Source of the DNA: Pseudomonadota bacterium
GTDB taxonomy: Bacteria > Pseudomonadota > Gammaproteobacteria > UBA9214
Assembly: GCA_029287615.1 (NCBI GenBank)
Contig: JARFQV010000223.1
Coordinates: 1-60,703, forward strand
DNA length: 60,703 bases
Reading direction: 5' to 3'
The translations under genes were made by a program, and so were the position numbers. The notes beneath the pieces were generated by a model. That model ran no database searches. It saw nothing but the letters and a program-made list of their open reading frames with translations, and was not told the origin of the DNA. Shown in pieces: positions 8,262-19,256 of the stretch. Position 1 is the stretch's first letter. Each line of letters begins with the position of its first letter.

Positions 8262-9671
8262 ATGTCTGCAACGAAAGTATTGAAAATGATCAAGGATAAC
8301 GAAGTCAAATTCATCGATTTTCGTTTTACGGATACCCGCGGCAAGGAACAGCATGTAACCGTTCCGTCTCACACGATTGACAACTCTACCTTCAAGGAAG
8401 GAAAGATGTTTGATGGTTCCAGCATCAGTGGCTGGAAGGGTATCAACGAATCGGACATGATCCTGATGCCGGATACCGATACGGCAGTAATGGATCTGTT
8501 CAGCGATGAATCAACACTGAATCTGCGCTGTGACATCCTGGAACCGACAACCATGACCGGATATGAGCGTGATCCCCGCTCGCTGGCCAAGCGCGCCGAG
8601 GCCTACCTGAAATCGACGGGTGTGGCCGATACGGCCTTTTTCGGGCCGGAGAACGAATTCTTCATCCTCGATGATGTGCGCTGGGGAGCCGACATGGGCG
8701 GTGCCTTTTACAAGGTGGATTCGGAAGAGGCCTCATGGAACTCGGAGCGGGTATTCGAGGATGGCAATATCGGTCATCGCCCGACTGTGAAGGGCGGATA
8801 CTTCCCGGTGCCGCCTGTGGACTCACTGCATGACATGCGCTCGGCAATGTGCCTGGCACTCGACGAGATGGGCACCAAGTCGGAAGTACATCATCATGAG
8901 GTCGCCACGGCCGGCCAGTGCGAGATCGGGGTAGAGTTCAATACGCTGGTACGCAAGGCGGATGAAGTTCAGATCCTGAAATATGTGATCATGAATGTGG
9001 CCCACAGTTACGGGAAGACAGCAACCTTCATGCCGAAGCCACTGGTGGGTGATAATGGTAACGGCATGCATGTCCACCAGTCACTGGCGAAAAAGGGCAA
9101 GAATCTGTTTAGCGGTAACAAGTATGGTGGCCTGTCCCAGCAGGCCCTGTATTACATCGGCGGTATCATCAAGCATGCGCGCTGCATCAACGCCTTCGCC
9201 AATGCAAGCACCAACAGCTACAAGCGACTGGTGCCTGGATTCGAGGCACCGGTCATGCTGGCCTACTCGGCGCGCAACCGCTCCGCATCGATCCGCATCC
9301 CCTTTGTCGCCAATCCCAAGGCACGCCGTATCGAGGTCAGGTTTCCCGACTCAACAGCCAATCCCTATCTGGCCTTCTCCGCCATGTTGATGGCGGGACT
9401 GGATGGTATTCAGAACAAGATCGATCCGGGCGATTCCATGGACAAGGACCTCTACGACCTGCCTCCGGAAGAAGAGGCAAAGATCCCGCAGGTGTGCTGT
9501 TCTTTCGAAGAGGCCCTGGAGGCGCTGGACAAGGATCGCAAGTTCCTCAAGGAGGGTGGCGTTTTCACGGATGATGTAATTGATGGATACATCGATCTCA
9601 AGATGGATGAAGTGACCAGGCTGCGCATGACGACCCATCCTGTGGAATTCGACATGTATTACAGTCTGTAG
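8262..9671 (+). CDS. glnA: glutamine synthetase type I
   Basis: ORF 8175..9671, trimmed to the ATG at 8262, which is preceded by [40 protein letters not shown] is a typical N-terminus. The adenylylation-site context [10 protein letters not shown] is present. Confidence 0.96.
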
Positions 9672-9699
9672 GCTGATTCTGTTCAGAACACTCAGATAG

Positions 9700-9727
9700 C
9701 GCCCCCTGTTCAGGGGGCGTTTTTTTT
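9700..9727 (+). terminator. intrinsic terminator after glnA
   Basis: CGCCCCCTG/CAGGGGGCG GC-rich stem followed by eight T residues (9720-9727). Confidence 0.85.
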
Positions 9728-9862
9728 CACCCGGATTTCTCATCGCGCCACCCGGTTAATGCCGGGCTGTTTCGTGGAGAAATTGCCCGCAACCCAGACA
9801 GGTGGTAGCGATGAGCCGACAGGGTGTATTGCATCTATTCCTGATCCTGATATGGTAAAAGG

Positions 9863-10408
9863 ATGATACGAGGATTATTCATCGTCCTGATCTTGTCGGT
9901 CTACCAGGCGCAGGCTGCCGTTTATCGTTCGGTTGATGAAGAGGGTAATGTAACCTTCACTGATCAACCATCAAAGGGATCCGAGCGTGTGAAAATCCCC
10001 TCGTTACCGACATTTACGCCACCACCAATGCCAAGATTCAGCCCGACGCCGACAGTGACCGAAGAGGCGAACAAGGCGATTTATGAAAAATTCTCCATTA
10101 CCAGACCGGAGAATGACCTTGCCTTCTGGGACAATGAAGGATTCGTGGATGTAGAGTTATTACTTGAGCCGGGGCTGCAAACCGGTCTTGGTCACAAGGT
10201 AGTGATCTATATGGACGGCGAACCGGCCACCTCACCCATGGATGCGATGAATTTTCGATTCAAGGATGTGGATCGTGGTACCCATACCCTTGCCGCAAAA
10301 GTGGTGGACAGCGATGGCAAGGTACTGATGAATACAGGGGATGTAATTTTCCACCTCAAAAGGCAATCCATCAATTTTCCGAACCGCAACCGGCCGACTC
10401 CCTTCTGA
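9863..10408 (+). CDS. DUF4124 domain-containing exported protein
   Basis: Signal peptide (LILSVYQAQA) followed by VYRSVDEEGNVTFTDQP, the DUF4124 signature. It occupies the glnA-ntrB intergenic slot. Confidence 0.8.
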   Translation: MIRGLFIVLILSVYQAQAAVYRSVDEEGNVTFTDQPSKGSERVKIPSLPTFTPPPMPRFSPTPTVTEEANKAIYEKFSITRPENDLAFWDNEGFVDVELLLEPGLQTGLGHKVVIYMDGEPATSPMDAMNFRFKDVDRGTHTLAAKVVDSDGKVLMNTGDVIFHLKRQSINFPNRNRPTPF

Positions 10409-10664
10409 TTTAGATGGCCGTCTGGTTTGGCCCGGCTGAATAAATCGGTACCACCGAACCTGATTAACCATGATCTGCCGTCCCGCTTGAGTAATACCCA
10501 GCAAGCTGGTTTTCTTTCCAATACAAGTGCTACACAACCCGATTCCCTGGAACGTATCATCATAGTCTGATGACGGGCCGCGGTGATACCCGGTTGCTGG
10601 TCTTGTCCCTCATGCACCGTTGACTCAGTAGCCGCACTGTTTGATTCGGTGAGCTTTCCCAGTT

Positions 10665-10699
10665 TTTTCAGGTTGTTCTTTTTGCACTATAATGGTGCA
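10665..10699 (+). promoter_or_regulatory. NtrC box overlapping a sigma-70-like promoter upstream of ntrB
   Basis: TGCACTATAATGGTGCA (10683-10699) matches 13 of 14 defined positions of the NtrC consensus and contains TATAAT (10688-10693). TTTTCA lies 17 nt upstream as a possible -35. Confidence 0.6.
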
Positions 10700-10817
10700 A
10701 CATATCTGTGTTATGGGCGGTGCATACCGGCCTGCTTATTATCGCATTATATGTAATTACTTATAATACATATGGTTAAGTGCGCTGTAACAACGGCAGT
10801 ACGGTCTCGATTATAGC

Positions 10818-10833
10818 TGGTTTGTTTTTTGCA
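10818..10833 (+). promoter_or_regulatory. possible sigma-54 -24/-12 element immediately before the ntrB ATG
   Basis: TGGTTTGTTTTTTGCA has GG and TTGCA at canonical spacing. The -12 GC is only 12 nt from the ATG at 10845, so function is doubtful. Confidence 0.3.
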
Positions 10834-10844
10834 TAAGAGCCACT

Positions 10845-11924
10845 ATGGGCATCACTTTAGACTGGATTCACCAAAATACACGGAATCTGCTCGACGGATT
10901 GAATACCGCAGTATTTGTGTTCGATAACGACTTGCGGCTCGTCTACATCAATGCGGCGGGTGAAATGCTGATGGACAACAGCGCCAGCCATTGCATAGGG
11001 CTCGATATCGATGGGCTGGTAGTTGACTCGGATTATATGCAGAAACACCTCAGGCAGGCCCTGCAGACCGGTCAGCCCTATATGCAGCGAGGCTGCCGTC
11101 TGCAACCCAATGGCCGGGATACCGTTACAGTGGATTGTACCGGCATACCCTTGTACCTGGACGGAGAAATTCAAGGGCTCCTCGTTGAGATGCTACAGGT
11201 AGACAGACAGCTTCGAATCAACCTCGAGACTCATTTACTGGACCAGCAACAGGCAACCCGGTCACTGGTCCGGGGGCTTGCCCACGAAATCAAGAATCCA
11301 CTGGGTGGCTTGCGCGGTGCAGCGCAATTGCTGGAGCAGGAGATAACCGATGAGTACCTGAAGGAGTACACAAGGATCATTATCGGTGAGGCGGACCGTC
11401 TGCAGAATTTGGTGAATCGCATGCTGGGTCCGAATAACGTACCCCGCATGCGATCAGTCAATATCCACGAGGTGCTGGCGCACGTGTGCAGCCTGGTACA
11501 GGCAGAGAATCTTCCCGGGCTGGTAATGAAGCAGGACTATGATCCCAGTATCCCGGAGTTATGGGCAGACCGCGATCTGCTGGTGCAGGCAGTGCTGAAT
11601 ATTGTGCGCAATGCAGTTCAGGCATTGCAGGGAAAAGGTCTTGTTTACCTGCGTACGCGAACATTGCGTCAGTACACGATTGGTAACCAACGCTACCGTC
11701 ATGTAGTCAAGGTTGAAATCCTTGATAACGGACCGGGTATTCCGAAAGAGATGCTGAAGCAGATATTTTTACCGATGATTACCACCAGCCCGGAGGGTAC
11801 CGGTCTGGGACTGTCCATAGCGCAGTCTATCCTCAATCAGCACAAGGGTTTGATTGAATGCCAAAGCGAGCCAGGCAATACCAAATTTACCTTGTTGTTA
11901 CCGTTGGAGTCAGAACATGAGTAA
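10845..11924 (+). CDS. ntrB: nitrogen regulation sensor histidine kinase NtrB
   Basis: PAS-like N-terminus, H-box LAHEIKNPLGGLRGAAQLL, and an HATPase C-terminus (GTGLGLSIAQ). Confidence 0.94.
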   Translation: MGITLDWIHQNTRNLLDGLNTAVFVFDNDLRLVYINAAGEMLMDNSASHCIGLDIDGLVVDSDYMQKHLRQALQTGQPYMQRGCRLQPNGRDTVTVDCTGIPLYLDGEIQGLLVEMLQVDRQLRINLETHLLDQQQATRSLVRGLAHEIKNPLGGLRGAAQLLEQEITDEYLKEYTRIIIGEADRLQNLVNRMLGPNNVPRMRSVNIHEVLAHVCSLVQAENLPGLVMKQDYDPSIPELWADRDLLVQAVLNIVRNAVQALQGKGLVYLRTRTLRQYTIGNQRYRHVVKVEILDNGPGIPKEMLKQIFLPMITTSPEGTGLGLSIAQSILNQHKGLIECQSEPGNTKFTLLLPLESEHE

Positions 11925-13335
11925 GGCACAGTCAATCTGGGTCATCGATGATGATCGTTCCATTCGATGGGTGCTGGAAAAAGCGCTCGGCAAGGCTGGA
12001 ATGGAGGTAAACAGTTTCTCATCGGCCACCGGGGTGCTGGGAGCACTGGCTGATAAACGACCCGATGCACTGATCACCGATATACGAATGCCGGGTATGG
12101 ATGGACTGGAATTACTGGACCGGATCAACAATCAGTATCCCGATTTACCAGTCATCATAATGACGGCTCACTCGGATCTGGATAGTGCGGTGGCCTCCTA
12201 TCAGGGGGGGGCTTTCGAATATCTGCCCAAGCCATTTGATGTCAACGAAGCGGTAGCCATGGCTAACCGTGCTGTTGAGCATGGACGGCGGAATTCCGGT
12301 ACGGCCGTAGTGGAAGAAAAGTTGAGCACTCCCGAGATCATCGGCAAGGCGCCGGCCATGCAGGAGGTTTTTCGTGCGATTGGTCGTTTGTCACAGTCCA
12401 ATATAACGGTATTGATCAATGGCGAATCCGGTACCGGTAAGGAACTGGTTGCGCAGGCACTGCATCAGCACAGTCCGCGTGCCAGCCAGGCGTTTGTCGC
12501 CCTGAACATGGCGGCTATACCGCGCGATTTACTTGAATCTGAGTTATTCGGGCATGAACGGGGCGCCTTTACCGGTGCGCAGAACCGGCGTATTGGACGC
12601 TTTGAACAGGCGGATGGTGGCACCCTGTTCCTGGACGAGATCGGGGATATGCCGGCCGAATTACAGACACGGCTTTTGCGTGTACTGGCAGACGGTGAAT
12701 TCTACCGGGTAGGCGCACACACCCCGGTCAAGGTCGATGTACGCATCATAGCCGCAACGCACCAGAACCTGGATCAGCGGGTCAAGGATGGCCTGTTTCG
12801 CGAGGATCTTTATCATCGTCTTAATGTAATTCGTATCCATATCCCTTCGTTGAGGGAACGCCGCGAGGACATACCGTTGTTGATGAGGTACTTCCTGGAC
12901 TTGGCTGCACAGGAACTCAATATGGAATCCAAGGCACTGGACCCGATAGCAGAACAACGTCTTGTGGAGATTGACTGGCCTGGTAATGTTCGTCAGCTGG
13001 AAAACCTGTGTCGCTGGTTGACCGTGATGTCCTCCGGACAGGATATCCTTCTGGAAGATCTGCCTGCTGAAATCCGGGAACCAGCGGAGGAGACAACTGG
13101 TGGCGCGAGTGGCTGGGTTGCCGTGTTGCGGAACTGGGCCCGTCAACAACTGGCAGCCGGTCGCAAGGGTTTGCTGGAAGAGGCCATGCCGGATTTCGAG
13201 CGTGCCATGATCGAGGTGGCCTTGCAGCAGACGGGTGGCAGACGCCAGGAAGCGGCGAGGTTACTCGGCTGGGGGCGCAATACCCTGACTCGCAAGATCA
13301 AGGAACTGGATATGAATGATAATGCTCGTGCCTGA
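11917..13335 (+). CDS. ntrC: nitrogen regulation response regulator NtrC (sigma-54 activator)
   Basis: ORF 11854..13335, trimmed to the ATG at 11917 (MSKAQSIWVIDDDRSIRWVLEKAL). It has a receiver domain, Walker A GESGTGKE, GAFTGA and a C-terminal HTH. It overlaps the ntrB stop by 8 nt. Confidence 0.95.
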   Translation: MSKAQSIWVIDDDRSIRWVLEKALGKAGMEVNSFSSATGVLGALADKRPDALITDIRMPGMDGLELLDRINNQYPDLPVIIMTAHSDLDSAVASYQGGAFEYLPKPFDVNEAVAMANRAVEHGRRNSGTAVVEEKLSTPEIIGKAPAMQEVFRAIGRLSQSNITVLINGESGTGKELVAQALHQHSPRASQAFVALNMAAIPRDLLESELFGHERGAFTGAQNRRIGRFEQADGGTLFLDEIGDMPAELQTRLLRVLADGEFYRVGAHTPVKVDVRIIAATHQNLDQRVKDGLFREDLYHRLNVIRIHIPSLRERREDIPLLMRYFLDLAAQELNMESKALDPIAEQRLVEIDWPGNVRQLENLCRWLTVMSSGQDILLEDLPAEIREPAEETTGGASGWVAVLRNWARQQLAAGRKGLLEEAMPDFERAMIEVALQQTGGRRQEAARLLGWGRNTLTRKIKELDMNDNARA

Positions 13336-13397
13336 TCTGTTTTCTGCTGCCTGATACCTCAGATTTTCAAGTTCGCAATTTAGCCTTTAAAATACGC

Positions 13398-13423
13398 CCC
13401 CAGTTCGAGTCTACGAATTGGGG
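13398..13423 (+). terminator. hairpin downstream of ntrC (no U-tract)
   Basis: CCCCAGTTCG-AGTCTA-CGAATTGGGG: a 10-bp stem with one G-T pair. No T-run follows, so its terminator status is uncertain. Confidence 0.3.
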
Positions 13424-13493
13424 ACGGCATGCTGACCGTACGATGTCACCAGGTGGCGGTTCTGAATAAGCCCGTTACGGCTCGCAACAATCC

Positions 13494-15518
13494 GTGAGGA
13501 TGAGCCATTCACGCGGTTTGTTGTGGCAGGTACGCGGATGCCATGCCTATCTGATCTTCCTGTGCCTCATGCAAATCGCCGGTACCGGCATGGCTGAAGA
13601 GCAGGGTGTTGAACCCGGCGTTCAGTCTGCTGATACCAGTGAAGTCTATACCGACCAGCTGATCGACCCCGGAGTGGCAGACGAGGTTTTCGATTCCCGA
13701 ACAGATGGTTTTTTCGAGGAACCCGAGGGACGACGTTTTTTCAATGTACAATACCGTCACTTCCTGGAAGACCTGGATGAGGCAGGTACTTCCTACGAAG
13801 ATGGTATTCTCTTGCAATGGCGGCGCGAGACGCAGGATCTGGGTGAACTGGACATGTTTGCCACGCTGCGGCATCTGCGTGGTGATGATCTCGACATCAG
13901 GGGACCGTCAACCGGTGGAGTGCTGACTCTCAGGCAGCATGGATTCGCGCTTAGCAACCGGTGGCTGATGGATAACGCGGCAGGGGTGCTGCGTACCACC
14001 GCCGATCCCGTAATCAGTTCCAGTTACCGGATCAACCTGCCCTCAAGCCTGATGGCTGGCGCACAGCTTCTTCTCGATGATGGCGTTTCACAATGGCGCT
14101 TCAATGCAGGTAGGCTGGGTTCCCTGGGAACGGGACAGGTCGATGCGTTTGACAGCAGGGATGGTTTGCTGGCAAACCTTGGTTACAGTCGTCAATTCAA
14201 TGTTCGCTGGCGCGGAGGCCTGCACCTCGTTCATCTCAATGATCACGACCGGGTCGAGGATCATCAAAGTGTTGTCGGACTGCTGCAGTACGAAACACCT
14301 GATAGAAACCAGCGATATCAGATACACACCCTTAATGACAGTAAGGGAAATTTCGGCGTGTGGCTTGATGGTGAGAACCGCATTGGTCGGTGGAGACACC
14401 GGTACGGGACTTTCCGGCTGGAACCGAACCTGCTCTGGACCGATGTGCCGGTTACCAATGACCAGCAGGGACTCTATGCGCGATCCGAGTTTCGTACCTT
14501 CCGCTTTTTCATGTCGGGTGGTGCCGATTACCGTGAAACCGATATCAAGGATGATCCGCGCCGGACGGGTACCCGAACCACCAGTGGATTTATCAATGGT
14601 ACATGGCGGGTGCGCGCCAGCACCAGTCTGGGTGGTACGCTGAGCGCGGTAGACTCACGGCCGCACAATGGTGGTGATGGAGATGATAATCGGACGGTTC
14701 GTCTCACCGGTTTTGTCTCGCAATCCGTTCCGATTGGTATAACCCGTTTGCAGCTATCCGTTGCCGATCTCAATGAAGGGAATGACGGCGATGGTCAGAT
14801 CTATGGTGTGATATGGGATCAGGACTGGAATTTTATCAGGACGCTTTCCCTGTCAACCTCACTCTCTCATGCGCGTAGCAGCGGATCCCTGGATGAGGAC
14901 AGACGTGATTCCGCCAGCCTGTTGTTACGGCATGATTTCAGTTCACGCTTTAACTGGAACAGCAGTTTCAGTTATACAAGAGTCGAGATGAATACCAGCA
15001 ATACCCAGGACGGCTACAACGCAAACCTGGGCGTGGGATGGCGATTCCTTCCTGACTGGGATGCCGGGCTGCAATTGGTGTGGAACCGGACTGATACGGA
15101 TTTCGGCAGATTGTCAGATAATGAGCGATCGGTGACCGACAAGTCACTCATGCTCAGTATACGACACAGTCGACGTAGCGGGCGTCCCATTGTCGCAGAG
15201 GGGCAGCGTCATAGCGGACAGGGTTACGGGAAGGTTGCCGGCCAGGTCTTCTATGACAGGAACGGCGATGGTGTGCGTCAGGCCGGTGAGGAGGCAGCGG
15301 AAGGAGTCCCTGTCTATCTTGACGGGCGATACGAACGTTTAACAGATCATGAGGGCCGTTTCCTGTTTAGCCCGGTTCCCGTGGGTGAACATCATTTGTC
15401 ACTGGCGCTGGAAGACGTGCCGCTGCCCTGGGGTTTGGAGGATGAGACACCGCAACCGGTAAGTGTATCGGTTCGCGAACAAACGGAGCATTCGGTTGGA
15501 CTGGTCCGGATTGAATAG
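13494..15518 (+). CDS. putative large beta-barrel outer-membrane protein with a C-terminal Cna-B/SdrD-B-like beta-sandwich domain
   Basis: Signal-like segment AYLIFLCLMQIAGTGMA, then an acidic linker. About 480 aa follow with alternating aromatic/Arg-rich short strands. The C-terminal GKVAGQVFYDRNGDGVRQAGE...LTDHEGRFLFSPVPVGEHHLSL has a Cna-B-type pattern. The ATG at 13500 is an alternative start. Confidence 0.6.
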   Translation: MRMSHSRGLLWQVRGCHAYLIFLCLMQIAGTGMAEEQGVEPGVQSADTSEVYTDQLIDPGVADEVFDSRTDGFFEEPEGRRFFNVQYRHFLEDLDEAGTSYEDGILLQWRRETQDLGELDMFATLRHLRGDDLDIRGPSTGGVLTLRQHGFALSNRWLMDNAAGVLRTTADPVISSSYRINLPSSLMAGAQLLLDDGVSQWRFNAGRLGSLGTGQVDAFDSRDGLLANLGYSRQFNVRWRGGLHLVHLNDHDRVEDHQSVVGLLQYETPDRNQRYQIHTLNDSKGNFGVWLDGENRIGRWRHRYGTFRLEPNLLWTDVPVTNDQQGLYARSEFRTFRFFMSGGADYRETDIKDDPRRTGTRTTSGFINGTWRVRASTSLGGTLSAVDSRPHNGGDGDDNRTVRLTGFVSQSVPIGITRLQLSVADLNEGNDGDGQIYGVIWDQDWNFIRTLSLSTSLSHARSSGSLDEDRRDSASLLLRHDFSSRFNWNSSFSYTRVEMNTSNTQDGYNANLGVGWRFLPDWDAGLQLVWNRTDTDFGRLSDNERSVTDKSLMLSIRHSRRSGRPIVAEGQRHSGQGYGKVAGQVFYDRNGDGVRQAGEEAAEGVPVYLDGRYERLTDHEGRFLFSPVPVGEHHLSLALEDVPLPWGLEDETPQPVSVSVREQTEHSVGLVRIE

Positions 15519-15531
15519 GCTGGAAATTCGT

Positions 15532-16371
15532 TTAGCGCTGGCTTGCCTCGACCATCCTGTCAAGACGCTCCCTGCCGCCGTCCCATTCAATAACACCCTT
15601 CAGCTCCAGTGGAGGCCTCAGAGTTACCGGTTCATCCTGGTCCAGAGTCGCCTGCCAGATCGGGATGGCGCGGGTATGCCCCGGCAGGACGGGGGAGGGT
15701 GATACACTGAACTCCAGGCGCTTGCCACTTGCATCCCTTCCTTGCAGTAATCCCTGCGGCCTGCCATGGGCGTTTCCCTTGTTGTGGAAAACGGCGACGG
15801 GTGTCAGACGGCCATTGACCTCGTCCAGTTTCAGCTCCTTGAGATCCAGGTCGGCTTTTGCATCTCCCACCACCACATAGATGATAACCGCGATGCGGCC
15901 ATGTATCGGGAAACTGATATTTTGCGCCTTGGCCATCAAAGCGTCTTCTTCCGCGGACTCGAGCAGCAGGGCGAGTCGACACTCTCCCGCAGGCGCATCC
16001 TCAGGTACCCTGATTTCAAACCGGTAGCGTTTGCTGGCCTGTGCAGCAAGCCTGATCTTATGACGTTCAATCCGCGCCCAGGGCCGACAGCTGTCGGGCT
16101 GCAGGGCGGGTGGATGAATAACCACACCGCCCTGATCGTTGAGCATCCAGTCTGCGGTTCGCAGCTGAAAGGTGTTCGGCTGGTCATCGGAATTCTGGAT
16201 TTCAACTATATCGCGAATAGACTGGCCTGGTGTGGCCTTCAGTTCAAAGCGTGGCGGCGAAACCTGGGCTGCAAAACCGGATGCACGAACTGCAACCGGT
16301 ATCGTCAATAGAGACAGCAGCAGGATCTTGAGCAGACTGCGGAAATCAGGGGCTAATAATTTCGATATCAT
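15532..16371 (-). CDS. PapD-like periplasmic pilus chaperone-like protein
   Basis: ORF 15532..16416, trimmed to the ATG at 16371 (MISKLLAPDFRSLLKILLLSLLTIPVAVRASG signal). VSPPRFELKATPGQSIRDIVEIQNSDDQPNTFQLRTADW fits the domain-1 pattern of fimbrial chaperones. It overlaps the upstream gene by 26 nt. Confidence 0.6.
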   Translation of the reverse strand: MISKLLAPDFRSLLKILLLSLLTIPVAVRASGFAAQVSPPRFELKATPGQSIRDIVEIQNSDDQPNTFQLRTADWMLNDQGGVVIHPPALQPDSCRPWARIERHKIRLAAQASKRYRFEIRVPEDAPAGECRLALLLESAEEDALMAKAQNISFPIHGRIAVIIYVVVGDAKADLDLKELKLDEVNGRLTPVAVFHNKGNAHGRPQGLLQGRDASGKRLEFSVSPSPVLPGHTRAIPIWQATLDQDEPVTLRPPLELKGVIEWDGGRERLDRMVEASQR

Positions 16372-16828
16372 AGACAGGTACAAAGCGCATGGTTTTGGAG
16401 AGGAAGCGTGCATCAATTTCTACCGTAAAGTCGAATCTGTCAATCATAACCTCGTCAGTTATGACTCCTTCAAAAATGGTTTCAGCAAATCCCGGCGTAA
16501 CGGATCCGCTGTTGAACAGCCCATTGGTAATCCAGCTGAGACGCAGACTGGACGGATCTTCGAGCCCACGTATTACAACCGGCAGCAGCAGGCTGATCCG
16601 TGCTCTCTGGCCCACGTACGCAGAAGTATTGAGCCGTATTTCCACATTACGTGCCTGTCCGAACATTGCCTGAAACTGTGCCTCGTCGAGTTGTTCGAGC
16701 CGGTTCTGGTATTTCCACTGCAGATCCAGGTCCAGTTGCTGGCGTGGCGAGAGGGAATCGTCCAGTCTCTCGGCCAGGATAGGCTTGTTCAGGAATAATA
16801 GTGCGGGAAAGATCCAGTAAAGCTTCAT
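16346..16828 (-). CDS. small secreted protein of the fibre locus, function unknown
   Basis: 160 aa with a signal-like N-terminus MKLYWIFPALLFLNKPILA. An ATGA start/stop overlap joins it to the upstream 174-aa gene. The C-terminal half is beta-rich. Confidence 0.55.
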   Translation of the reverse strand: MKLYWIFPALLFLNKPILAERLDDSLSPRQQLDLDLQWKYQNRLEQLDEAQFQAMFGQARNVEIRLNTSAYVGQRARISLLLPVVIRGLEDPSSLRLSWITNGLFNSGSVTPGFAETIFEGVITDEVMIDRFDFTVEIDARFLSKTMRFVPVYDIEIISP

Positions 16829-17349
16829 GGAAAAGCCAGTGTGTAGACAACACGGCCGGTATAGGTGCCAGCCTCCAGGATGCGTGTATTGGCGTAGATG
16901 AATGTCAGCCTGTCATTCACACGAACGGAGCTAGGATAGGTGACCAGCACCTGGTATGCGGTTCCGTCGAAGGTACCGCCCGGTATATCACCGTCACGTG
17001 ACGTCCAGCTGATATCGCCAAAGGGCAGGGTGCTGCTGCCATTGGACAGGGGCGTTGAGGAGTCTGCGGACAGGATACCCGTCAATGGACTTGAAGCGCG
17101 TGCCCGGATCACCATCTGGAAGCTGATCGAAGAAGTGCTGGTGATCGGGTTACCGTTACCCAGATCGGCAAGCGGGACGGTGAAGTCGACCTCATCGATT
17201 CTGGGACCGCTGCTGCCCACGATCAGCCGAAGCCTCGGCACAGTGCGGTCGGGAATATTAAACACAATAGCGACTGTCTGCTGGCACCAGGCGGACAGCA
17301 TGATATACAGGAGTGTATGTGCAGTTACTCTCAGCCAATGCCTGTTCAT
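16825..17349 (-). CDS. pilin-like secreted subunit (paralog of the 202-aa protein)
   Basis: 174 aa with a hydrophobic N-terminus. It shares three blocks with ORF 17506..18114, including the C-terminal EAGTYTGRVVYTLAFP. Confidence 0.6.
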   Translation of the reverse strand: MNRHWLRVTAHTLLYIMLSAWCQQTVAIVFNIPDRTVPRLRLIVGSSGPRIDEVDFTVPLADLGNGNPITSTSSISFQMVIRARASSPLTGILSADSSTPLSNGSSTLPFGDISWTSRDGDIPGGTFDGTAYQVLVTYPSSVRVNDRLTFIYANTRILEAGTYTGRVVYTLAFP

Positions 17350-17466
17350 GAAGTAACCCGGCAGGACGCAAGTTTCAAAACCTGAATGCTACCGCCAAAG
17401 CGGCAATCAACCAAGTGAGAATTCCGTGAAACCGGATCGAGTCAGACTGGACAGGATTGGGAACAG

Positions 17467-17497
17467 AAAAAGCCCGCCCCGCTTTTCCGGGGCGGGC
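17467..17497 (-). terminator. strong intrinsic terminator directly after the 202-aa subunit gene
   Basis: On the minus strand: GCCCGCCCCG-GAAAAG-CGGGGCGGGC, a 10-bp perfect GC stem, followed by TTTTT. It begins 8 nt after the stop codon. Confidence 0.8.
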
Positions 17498-17505
17498 TCC
17501 TGCAA

Positions 17506-18114
17506 TCAGGGATTGCTGGCGGTGTAGGTCACACGACCTCCACGGGCACTGGTGCCATACGTACCGGATTCATACACCGCGGTATTCAGGTAGGCGTATG
17601 TCCAGGTAGCATTTTCAATGGTCAGGCTACCATTTATAGTCGGGCTGGACGTGTTGGTGCCTGAATTGGAAAGGACCGGTGGACTGAGGTCCGAATTGTC
17701 GCTGATTGTGCCGATTTCGGCGTAGGGAATTCGATTGCCCACGAGGTTGGCGAGACCGGCCCCGCCGCTGTTGTTACTCTCGGTGATGGTAATCACACCT
17801 GCATTGCTGATAATTTGAACAGAAACATCACCAGGTGTGCCGGTATCGCCGCCGGAGGTCGCAGATACCGGGTTCAACGGGTCGCCCAGGGTCGCCGCCG
17901 GTGGATCGAAGATGATTTCGTTAATGGTACCACCGGGGGAACCTACCCGAAATCGCAACACCGATGGTATATTAATGCGAAAATCCAGATTGACCCCTGC
18001 CTGGATGTTACCGTTGCCGGTTACGGTTACAGCTTCTGAGGCGGCCTGTCCCGGTAACATGGCGATAGCCAGGCTGGTGGAACTGATCAGTAGAATATTC
18101 TTCAGTTTTTTCAT
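17506..18114 (-). CDS. putative major fibre subunit (secreted, pilin-like)
   Basis: 202 aa with signal peptide MKKLKNILLISSTSLAIAMLPGQAAS. The mature part is rich in Ser/Thr/Gly/Asn. The C-terminal ESGTYGTSARGGRVTYTASNP resembles a pilin strand F. There are no cysteines. Confidence 0.6.
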   Translation of the reverse strand: MKKLKNILLISSTSLAIAMLPGQAASEAVTVTGNGNIQAGVNLDFRINIPSVLRFRVGSPGGTINEIIFDPPAATLGDPLNPVSATSGGDTGTPGDVSVQIISNAGVITITESNNSGGAGLANLVGNRIPYAEIGTISDNSDLSPPVLSNSGTNTSSPTINGSLTIENATWTYAYLNTAVYESGTYGTSARGGRVTYTASNP

Positions 18115-18263
18115 TGCGCACCCTGTTGATCGGTAGGTTTCGGGAATGATGCTTCATTACTCGAACCTAGCTATCGGCACAAAAGCTGATACATTGAGCC
18201 GATTTCTCCCCCACCACACAGCGGGGTGCGGGTCGATTTACAGTATGGGCTGAGGATCCGGGA

Positions 18264-19256
18264 TCAGAACGTACAGTGGGTGGAGGCGTCATTCAGTGAC
18301 AGTGTGCCGGTCAGGTCTGTTACCCGGCGAATATCATGTCGCTCCAGGTAGGCAAGGATGCCATGATTGATCTTCGGACAGACCAGCGGATCATAAAACA
18401 GGGCGGTGCCGATGCCCACGGCCGAGGCACCGGCGATCAGGAATTCCAGGGCATCTTCCGGTGTTGTGATTCCTCCCTGTCCGATGATCGGGACTGCGTG
18501 CGGCCTGGCTACCTGATAGACCTGGTGGACCTTCAGCAGGGCAACCGGTTTGATGGCGGGGCCGGACAGTCCGCCCTGATTATTTCCGATAACCGGTGTC
18601 CTGTTTTCGATATCGATGGCCATGCCCATCAGTGTGTTGATGACCGAGAAGGCATCGGTACCCGCATCGATACAGCGACGGGCATTTTCGGCAATGTCGG
18701 TCTGATTGGGCGACAGCTTGGTAATCAGGGGCTTGCTGGTGACGGCACGGCAGGCCTCTACCACTCGTGCCGACATATCCGGATCATTGCCAAAGGTGAC
18801 GCCACCTTCCTTGACATTTGGGCAGGAAATGTTGATCTCGATGCCGTCAATGGGCGAATCTTCGAAACGTCGGGTGACTTCGACATATTCCTCGAGGGTT
18901 GAACCGGAGACATTGGCGATAAAGCGGGTTTCCTCAAAATCCAGTTGTGTCAGAATGGTATCGATCACCTGATCGGTACCCGGATTTTGCAAACCGATGG
19001 CGTTGAGCATGCCCATCGGGGTTTCCGCAATACGGTGCGGCGGATTTCCCAGGCGTGCTTTCAGGGTGGTTCCCTTCAAACAGATGGCGCCGACGTCGCG
19101 GTTGGAAAAACCGTCTACCCGTGTGTATTCTTCTCCGAACCCGACACAGCCGGATAACAGTACCAGGGGTGTCGCCAGTGGCATGCCGCAGAGATCGATG
19201 GCAAGCCTGTCCACCCCGGTTTCATCCGGGACGGTGTCCTGTTTAGACGTGGTCAT
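18264..19256 (-). CDS. pyrD: class 1 dihydroorotate dehydrogenase-family flavoenzyme (PyrD type 1 / PreA-like catalytic subunit)
   Basis: PLVLLSGCVGFG, GIEINISCPNVKEGG (catalytic Cys typical of class 1) and GGLSGPAIKPVAL...IIGQGGI motifs. Confidence 0.8.
   Translation of the reverse strand: MTTSKQDTVPDETGVDRLAIDLCGMPLATPLVLLSGCVGFGEEYTRVDGFSNRDVGAICLKGTTLKARLGNPPHRIAETPMGMLNAIGLQNPGTDQVIDTILTQLDFEETRFIANVSGSTLEEYVEVTRRFEDSPIDGIEINISCPNVKEGGVTFGNDPDMSARVVEACRAVTSKPLITKLSPNQTDIAENARRCIDAGTDAFSVINTLMGMAIDIENRTPVIGNNQGGLSGPAIKPVALLKVHQVYQVARPHAVPIIGQGGITTPEDALEFLIAGASAVGIGTALFYDPLVCPKINHGILAYLERHDIRRVTDLTGTLSLNDASTHCTF

Follow-up and report, generated by a model that had tools for sequence, protein, structure and literature searches.

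Chaperone-usher pili are among the best-understood surface-assembly machines of bacteria, and their classes rest on recognisable sequences of the usher and of the PapD-type chaperone. Can the operon logic and the folds of such a machine be kept by proteins that lie outside its sequence families? This question is raised by a locus in a contig of a gammaproteobacterium of the UBA9214 lineage (JARFQV010000223.1, assembly GCA_029287615.1; 60,703 nucleotides, analysed as a whole and called the window below), where five genes at positions 13494–18114 encode two related candidate fibre subunits (p202 and p174), a third small secreted protein (p160), a chaperone-like protein and a 674-residue outer-membrane protein (OMP). 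A reading made earlier from the nucleotide letters, called here the sequence-only reading, had proposed a fibre locus with the gene order of the Csu operon, a PapD-like chaperone and no recognisable usher.

The reading favoured here, to which we give a probability of about 0.6, is that the five genes form a self-contained surface-fibre assembly system, chaperone-usher-like in plan and built of non-canonical parts, and that this system is an undescribed and widespread variant. Its combination of a helper related to WxLIP proteins with a stripped-down, usher-like pore fits no described pilus class. In the literature, no description was found of such a cluster in diderm bacteria, nor of a link between WxLIP proteins and the chaperones of chaperone-usher systems.

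Organization of the locus

Four of the genes are read from the minus strand. In the order of transcription, they are p202 (17506–18114; 202 residues), the candidate major subunit; p174 (16825–17349; 174 residues), the second subunit; p160 (16346–16828), which encodes a secreted protein of 160 residues; and the gene for the chaperone-like protein (15532–16371), 279 residues long from its ATG, for which an alternative, longer open reading frame (ORF) with a TTG start extends to 16416. The OMP gene (13494–15518) lies on the plus strand and begins with GTG in the ORF listing; public gene calls place its start at an ATG two codons on (13500), giving 672 residues. By their coordinates, p174 and p160 overlap by 4 nucleotides (ATGA) and p160 and the chaperone gene by 26, while the convergent stop codons of the OMP gene (15516–15518) and the chaperone gene (15532–15534) are 13 nucleotides apart when read directly. 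Inspection of the N-termini reads a Sec signal peptide in all five proteins; that of p174 is present only with the 174-residue start at 17349, because the deposited call, which starts at M17 and yields 158 residues, cuts it off.

The gene for the candidate major subunit is set apart from the following ones by a Rho-independent terminator or attenuator on the minus strand (17462–17498), 8 nucleotides past the p202 stop codon. It consists of an 11-bp GC-rich stem at 17498–17471, followed by UUUUCUGUU, and its RNA fold has a free energy of −31.3 kcal/mol with a z-score of −4.4 against shuffled sequences. A simple pattern scan for promoters and terminators, whose counts were at chance level, overlooked it. 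The sequence-only reading had described this architecture correctly: the five ORFs, both overlaps, the convergent gap and the signal-like N-termini are all present, and the strong terminator that it saw after the 202-residue gene is real.

Conservation of the module

Homologues of each of the five genes are numerous, with identities of 30–60%. A genome scan with the chaperone-like protein gave ten loci (L001–L010), found in metagenome-assembled genomes (MAGs) of Gammaproteobacteria, in Arenimonas and in Steroidobacterales. Four more were inspected, namely L013, which is part of a 2.87-Mb contig, L014, and L015 and L016, which were reached via distant homologues of the chaperone, bringing the number of related loci besides the window to 14. 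All hosts found are uncultured MAGs.

Judged by tblastn and ORF inspection, L001–L010, L013 and L014 share one order: a p202-like gene, a p174-like gene, a p160-like ORF for about 155–165 residues, the chaperone gene and the gene for an OMP of about 665 residues. In 12 of the 14 loci (nine of L001–L010, and also L014), the chaperone gene is followed immediately by the OMP gene, both on one strand, and the two ORFs abut or overlap in L002–L006, L009 and L010; in L003, for example, the chaperone ORF ends at 8708 and the OMP ORF starts at 8705. Among L001–L010, the inverted arrangement of the window recurs solely in L001, its closest relative, and the two genes are convergent in L013 as well. The distant loci L015 and L016 retain four genes as a core, for two small subunits, the chaperone and an OMP of 750–850 residues with an SdrD_B domain, and a p160 homologue is absent from both. 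Their OMPs match the profile of the OMP family at E-values of 7e-32 and 1e-16, respectively. Both subunits of L015, whose C-termini read ...YTLSxP, match the p174 profile (E about 1e-11); those of L016 do not match this profile, and one of them ends in ...FTITTP.

The five genes are thus one conserved module. The sequence-only reading had set co-occurrence beforehand as a test that could refute it, and in each of the related loci inspected the OMP gene is conserved together with the others. The Csu-like order of a fibre-type locus is upheld. Of the two versions that had been offered, a system without any usher and one with an alternative usher, the former finds no support: the OMP is an integral member of the operon, merely inverted in the lineage of the window.

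How widespread the module may be was estimated with a profile of the chaperone family, searched against 1.84 billion representative sequences clustered at 50% identity. At E ≤ 1e-30 it matched 97 clusters; relaxing the limit to E ≤ 1e-10 raised the number to 793, and a limit of E ≤ 1e-3 gave 5115, where the weaker matches probably include other DUF916-type proteins. Named matches come from Gammaproteobacteria (including Arenimonas), Steroidobacterales, Usitatibacter and one MAG labelled as Deltaproteobacteria.

These data also bear on the idea that the locus is a classical chaperone-usher operon in decay, which has lost its usher and stands beside an unrelated porin by chance. The five genes are intact and retain 30–60% identity across many lineages, the OMP gene is linked to the others in all 14 related loci, mostly downstream on the same strand, and the 793 clusters of the chaperone family likewise speak against decay. 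In L013, the cluster (9001–13789) lies about 220 nucleotides from a complete canonical operon of the sigma type (14012–18621, minus strand; SCPU, Usher, PapD_N, SCPU, SCPU). Standing beside an intact canonical operon, the cluster is a system of its own and not the decayed form of one. No point was found in favour of this idea, which the co-conservation data refute and which we regard as hardly conceivable.

A chaperone-like protein of the WxLIP family

The 279-residue protein matches PF06030 (DUF916) with 32.4 bits, above the gathering cut-off of 27.3, as do 22 of 42 homologues. Its sole relative of solved structure is EfmWxLIP1 of Enterococcus faecium (9i25_C and 9i1y_A), found at an E-value of 3e-4 with the single sequence and 5.5e-5 with the profile. 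When the family was aligned by hhalign to a profile of seven Firmicute WxLIPs taken from plasmid loci, the probability was 95.8% (E 7e-9), and at a relaxed threshold the alignment was collinear over both domains. By these profile comparisons, the protein belongs to the DUF916/WxLIP family (PF06030) and not to the PapD family; PapD_N and PapD_C (PF00345 and PF02753) gave no match at E ≤ 1. The DUF3324 domain, the second domain of WxLIPs, was not matched by Pfam, and the relaxed hhalign alignment passes collinearly through this region at low confidence. Just past domain 2, the protein and its homologues end in hydrophilic C-termini with no transmembrane helix. Having no membrane anchor, the protein fits a soluble periplasmic one.

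There is a faint resemblance to PapD-type chaperones. Two of 24 distant family members touch PRK09918 of NCBIfam (E 3e-4), and many homologues carry the JGI names 'fimbrial chaperone' or 'PapD'. Aligned by hhalign with the sigma-type PapD_N chaperone of L013, the family reaches a probability of 66% (E 5.6e-5, 185 columns), collinear but weak; with a small mixed PapD profile (FimC, SfmC, YadV and the sigma chaperone), the probability is 22%, again weak and collinear over both domains. PapD-like chaperones anchor the C-terminus of the subunit through two residues, a conserved Arg of strand A1 (R8) and a basic one of strand G1 (K112). In the 22% alignment, the invariant R41 of the family, located in the first strand (VSPPRFEL), is aligned to R8 of FimC, whereas K112 of FimC stands opposite an Ala, with a conserved R159 two residues upstream.

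Because this similarity is collinear, however faint, the impression of a pilus chaperone in the sequence-only reading is understandable. The proposal of an Ig-type periplasmic chaperone holds up as a putative assignment, and what changes is the family, WxLIP in place of PapD. The accompanying statement that none of the five proteins can be placed in a named family likewise fails for the chaperone and holds for the subunits, p160 and the barrel, all of which matched no family. Among the Pfam models that had been suggested for a check, PF00345, PF02753, PF00577 and PF05229 were all negative; the positive match was to PF06030, a model that had not been named there.

Two further features are seen in this protein. 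One is a long hydrophobic strand, G-R-I-A-V-I-I-Y-V. The other is a pair of cysteines, C95 (SCRPW) and C131 (GECR), invariant in the clade of the window and suggestive of a periplasmic disulfide; the L015 and L016 homologues lack both. Binding of WxL proteins by WxLIPs has been reported, and in AlphaFold2 predictions a β-hairpin strand of the WxLIP is inserted into its partner (PMC10599100). By analogy, such an insertion is the same principle as donor-strand complementation.

A predicted outer-membrane barrel with usher-like architecture

The AlphaFold2 model of the OMP (predicted local distance difference test, pLDDT, 81.7) has 26 consecutive strands at residues 81–562 and a β-sandwich at 578–672; here and for p202, strands were counted from DSSP strings. 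No Pfam family covers the barrel, while the β-sandwich, formed by the C-terminal 95 or so residues, is recognised as SdrD_B in 47 and as CarboxypepD_reg in 45 of 48 homologues. Ahead of the barrel, the signal peptide is followed by a segment of low confidence, 29–74 (pLDDT < 50), which is probably disordered and makes up a mature N-terminus of about 45 residues. This segment contains a motif that is nearly invariant in the 48 homologues, Y52-x-D54-x-L56-I57 (Y-x-D-Q-L-I-D in the protein of the window), and it may serve for docking in place of the N-terminal domain that ushers have.

When the model was compared with the PDB by Foldseek, ranks 1–11 were all occupied by FimD and PapC ushers, with E-values of 1.7e-13 to 2.5e-9 over about 680 columns. 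TM-scores with the ushers are modest, about 0.41, and the preference for ushers is therefore drawn from the ranking of E-values together with the genomic context. The order of parts, a large barrel and then a β-sandwich C-terminal domain of periplasmic type, is that of ushers according to the model and the Foldseek matches. The version of the sequence-only reading in which the 674-residue barrel is an alternative usher gains support from these results. Attempts to show that the barrel is a sequence homologue of ushers gave no such relation: hhalign aligned the C-terminal domain alone, with probabilities of 10% and 0.5%. The better value was obtained with the canonical usher in L013 and reflects a weak resemblance to its first C-terminal domain (CTD1) region, 28% identical in 74 columns.

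Behind the ushers in the Foldseek list come Occ porins, MtrB and TonB-dependent receptors, with E-values from 1e-8 to 1e-6, and LptD is found at 6.7e-7. The OMP might then be a transport or sheath barrel, similar to TonB-dependent receptors, Occ porins or MtrB/LptD, which takes up or exports a substrate other than protein and is bound or plugged by the small secreted proteins in the periplasm or at the surface. Besides these matches, of which that to MtrB has a TM-score of 0.45, a weak match to TIGR03016, a PEP-CTERM-associated OMP family of NCBIfam, can be cited for this view, as can the CarboxypepD_reg-like domain, which occurs also in SusC-type receptors. In E-value, however, the ushers lead all other barrels by some five orders of magnitude, the secondary structure of the model shows no plug or TonB-box region, and inspection of the partner proteins gives neither haem motifs nor lipoboxes. 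A transport barrel would also not explain why the OMP gene is so tightly linked to those of a DUF916/PapD-like protein and of pilin-like paralogues, and we consider it quite improbable.

The candidate subunits

For p202, 123 homologues were found. The AlphaFold2 model of p202 (pLDDT 87.6) has seven strands, and its top 16 matches in the PDB are all chaperone-usher pilins (CS20, FimA, FimG, FimF, FimI, the pilin domain of PapG, and PsaA). Structure prediction and Foldseek, which the sequence-only reading had proposed as a check, thus place chaperone-usher pilins and FimD/PapC ushers on top for p202 and the OMP, respectively, the former at weak scores. The families of p174 and p202 are related by hhalign with a probability of 99.5% (E 2.5e-22), and by this comparison p174 is a paralogue of p202, as had been seen from the letters; a p174-like subunit is present in all related loci. 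Neither NCBIfam nor PDB sequences gave a match to p202, p174 or p160. Profiles do not identify the subunits as SCPU proteins or type-1 pilins: compared by hhalign with SCPU proteins and with pilins of E. coli, they stayed at probabilities of 16% or below, not significant.

In the p202 family, a conserved C-terminus runs up to the stop codon (...W-T-Y-x-Y...G-T-Y-G...R-V-T-Y-T-A-S-x-P), and that of p174 is ...G-T-Y-T-G-R-V-V-Y-T-L-A-F-P; common to both families is the ending ...[YF]-T-x-x-x-P-stop after W-T-[YF]-x-Y and G-T-[YF] motifs. Near the mature N-termini there are segments of alternating hydrophobic residues (φ-x-φ-x-φ), VNLDFRINIP in p202 and IVFNIP or YTLTLAP in p174. An invariant extreme C-terminus together with such an N-terminal segment would be what donor-strand systems require.

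The C-termini of the subunits (...WT[YF]xY...GT[YF]...VxYTxxxP-stop) loosely mirror the motifs of WxL proteins (...GTWTL...TLTWxLxxxP) seen in the Firmicute loci L017, L019 and L021–L023. As WxL domains (PF13731), the subunits found no match in Pfam, and hhalign against a WxL profile of five sequences from Firmicute plasmid loci gave probabilities of 9% for p202 and 1.5% for p174, not significant.

Relation to the WxL clusters of Firmicutes

The likeness to Firmicutes extends to the composition of the cluster. WxL/WxLIP clusters (DUF916-DUF3324; EfmWxLIP1) also combine a DUF916 relative with two secreted, β-rich paralogues of about 180–200 residues (PMC10599100, PMC9772566), and in both types of cluster Pro is the last residue of the paralogues, with conserved aromatic motifs close to it. 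The differences are that the host is diderm here and an outer-membrane barrel is included, that the chaperone-like protein lacks the C-terminal transmembrane helix of WxLIPs and a DUF3324 domain detectable by Pfam, that the subunits are not detectable as WxL domains, and that there is neither an LPXTG protein nor a large multi-domain adhesin.

This likeness is the basis of the most serious competitor of the fibre reading: a diderm version of the WxL/WxLIP complex that displays proteins at the surface and does not polymerise, in which p202 and p174 are exported through the barrel or anchored at it, singly or as a small hetero-oligomer, and the DUF916 protein is a stable partner. That the chaperone is nearer by sequence to WxLIP than to PapD, that the gene complement and the subunit C-termini recall WxL clusters, and that no tip adhesin is encoded would all suit such a complex. 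It is at odds with the failure of both Pfam and hhalign to find a WxL domain in the subunits and with the missing transmembrane anchor. Moreover, the fold matches of p202 are pilins that polymerise, with 9i25 and 9i1y absent from the top 50, and a major-subunit gene boosted by a terminator beside an usher-like pore is a hallmark of polymer assembly. A display complex of this kind therefore seems rather unlikely to us, though it comes ahead of the two alternatives discussed above.

The 160-residue protein

An ORF homologous to p160 occupies the same position in L001–L010, L013 and L014. Its conserved residues include the invariant D23, D24 and S25, W38, R77 and I78, and W99; the D-D-S motif stands in the mature N-terminus and is followed by an alternating-hydrophobic stretch, LDLDLQW. 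Nothing similar was found in Pfam, in PDB sequences, or among the subunits and the chaperone. As a third pilin paralogue or a fragment of the chaperone, p160 reached hhalign probabilities of 7% at most, and it is no recognisable paralogue of the subunits, among which the sequence-only reading had by implication counted it.

Separately encoded plugs have precedents in LptE, which sits in LptD, and in MtrA, which sits in MtrB. With the MtrB–MtrA and LptD–LptE pairs, the cluster shares a predicted strand number of about 26, fold matches to MtrB and LptD, and a small secreted partner that is co-encoded; by analogy, p160 could occupy the lumen of the barrel. The cluster differs from them in having no cytochromes, no lipoprotein partner and no genes of lipopolysaccharide transport, in an OMP that ushers match better, and in genomic partners that are pilin-like and chaperone-like.

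Weighing the fibre reading

The closest functional parallel is the Csu operon of Acinetobacter baumannii (csuA/B-A-B-C-D-E), and with it the sigma operon of L013. The logic is the same: a major subunit, a terminator, one or more minor subunits, a periplasmic chaperone, putatively of the Ig type, and a large pore of the outer membrane, all exported by Sec. The chaperone aligns weakly and collinearly with a sigma PapD_N chaperone, and the fold matches of the OMP and p202 are FimD/PapC and chaperone-usher pilins. Unlike the sigma and Csu systems, the cluster has no Pfam or NCBIfam match to PapD_N, PapD_C, Usher, SCPU or Fimbrial, and it contains an extra, unrelated protein of 160 residues. The OMP, at about 670 residues, is smaller than their ushers (about 830), and has a single C-terminal domain, of the SdrD-B type, where ushers have two.

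A number of findings weigh against a chaperone-usher-like fibre system. None of the 48 members of the OMP family matches the usher families of Pfam (PF00577, PF13954 and PF13953), so that a canonical usher is missing, as the sequence-only reading had said. The model of the OMP lacks the N-terminal domain of about 125 residues and the plug of ushers, with no insertion between strands longer than about 18 residues, and it has about 26 strands where ushers have 24. MtrB reaches a TM-score similar to that of the ushers (E 2.9e-8), large barrels cross-matching generically. Among the chaperone homologues, PapD_N is matched by none of 42 close and none of 24 distant ones, and WxLIPs, the closest sequence relatives, have been described as stable scaffolds, not as transient chaperones (PMC10599100). 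Pfam finds no domain in p202, p174 or 69 p202 homologues, Fimbrial (PF00419) and SCPU (PF05229) included. The pilin matches of p202 are weak (E 1e-2 to 1e-1, probability 0.4–0.93, TM-score 0.23–0.45), and in the model of the p202 monomer, DSSP assigns no strand to the N-terminal segment proposed as donor. Finally, no tip adhesin is encoded in the cluster, an absence that had also been observed from the letters.

Under the fibre reading, assembly may be pictured as follows. All five proteins would cross the inner membrane via Sec, and the terminator after p202 would keep the ratio of major subunit to machinery high. In the periplasm, the DUF916/WxLIP-type protein would capture p202 as the major and p174 as the minor subunit; GRIAVIIYV is the candidate for the complementing strand that completes their folds, and the invariant Arg41 is a candidate anchor for the subunit C-terminus ...YTxSxP-COOH. 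The complexes would then go to the 674-residue OMP. The C-terminal domains of ushers act as a docking site, and here the C-terminal periplasmic β-sandwich or the conserved N-terminal peptide could serve as one. Subunits would polymerise there as the alternating-hydrophobic segment at the N-terminus of each incoming subunit takes the place of the chaperone strand, and they would be extruded through the barrel. The p160 protein would be a clade-specific accessory, either an initiator, a terminating or anchoring subunit, or a separately encoded plug for the plugless barrel.

A bolder proposal goes beyond this, and we hold it as possible, though on balance doubtful. The cluster would be an unrecognised, widespread clade of chaperone-usher systems outside the alpha, beta, gamma, kappa, pi and sigma classes, with its chaperone as an evolutionary bridge between the PapD type and the WxLIPs of Gram-positive bacteria. 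The WxL clusters of the monoderm Firmicutes would descend from donor-strand fibre systems or be related to them, their WxL domains being pilin-like subunits held by the WxLIP strand, and the OMP would be a minimal usher with neither plug nor N-terminal domain, its lumen gated by p160 in the clade of the window.

Genomic surroundings

The five genes stand between ntrB/ntrC on one side (Response_reg, Sigma54_activat and HTH_8 domains) and a gene for a dihydroorotate dehydrogenase (PF01180) on the other, in agreement with the ntrC and pyrD-type flanks named earlier. The GC content is even over the five-gene block, and there is therefore no hint of a recent island. In a scan of the whole 60.7-kb window with Rfam, no family reached its gathering score, and no tRNA, rRNA or riboswitch was matched.

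Activators of sigma54 of the NtrC type adjoin the cluster in the window (ntrC, 11854–13335), in L001 (10852–12258), in L012 and in L015 (4178–5590). In the clade of the window, the activator belongs to a true ntrBC pair; in the distant L015, it is an orphan regulator that lies 300 nucleotides upstream in the same direction. These neighbours prompted a look at sigma54/NtrC control, which was rejected: the relevant intergenic regions of the window contain no −24/−12 promoter, and genome-wide matches are at chance level. Just upstream of ntrB, an ORF on the plus strand (9863–10408) encodes 181 residues with a signal peptide and a Pro-rich linker.

Implications

The cluster retains operon logic and folds, yet every component lies outside the sequence families of chaperone-usher systems, and its subunits, p160 and barrel have no family at all. 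Such a module is not rare, as the 793 clusters at E ≤ 1e-10 indicate. If the fibre reading is true, a new clade of fibre machinery has been overlooked by present annotation pipelines, and a minimal usher would be defined as a barrel with one periplasmic domain. The poorly understood WxL/WxLIP surface clusters of enterococci, listeriae and lactobacilli would in turn have a relative in mechanism, and strand complementation would become a hypothesis that can be tested in them.

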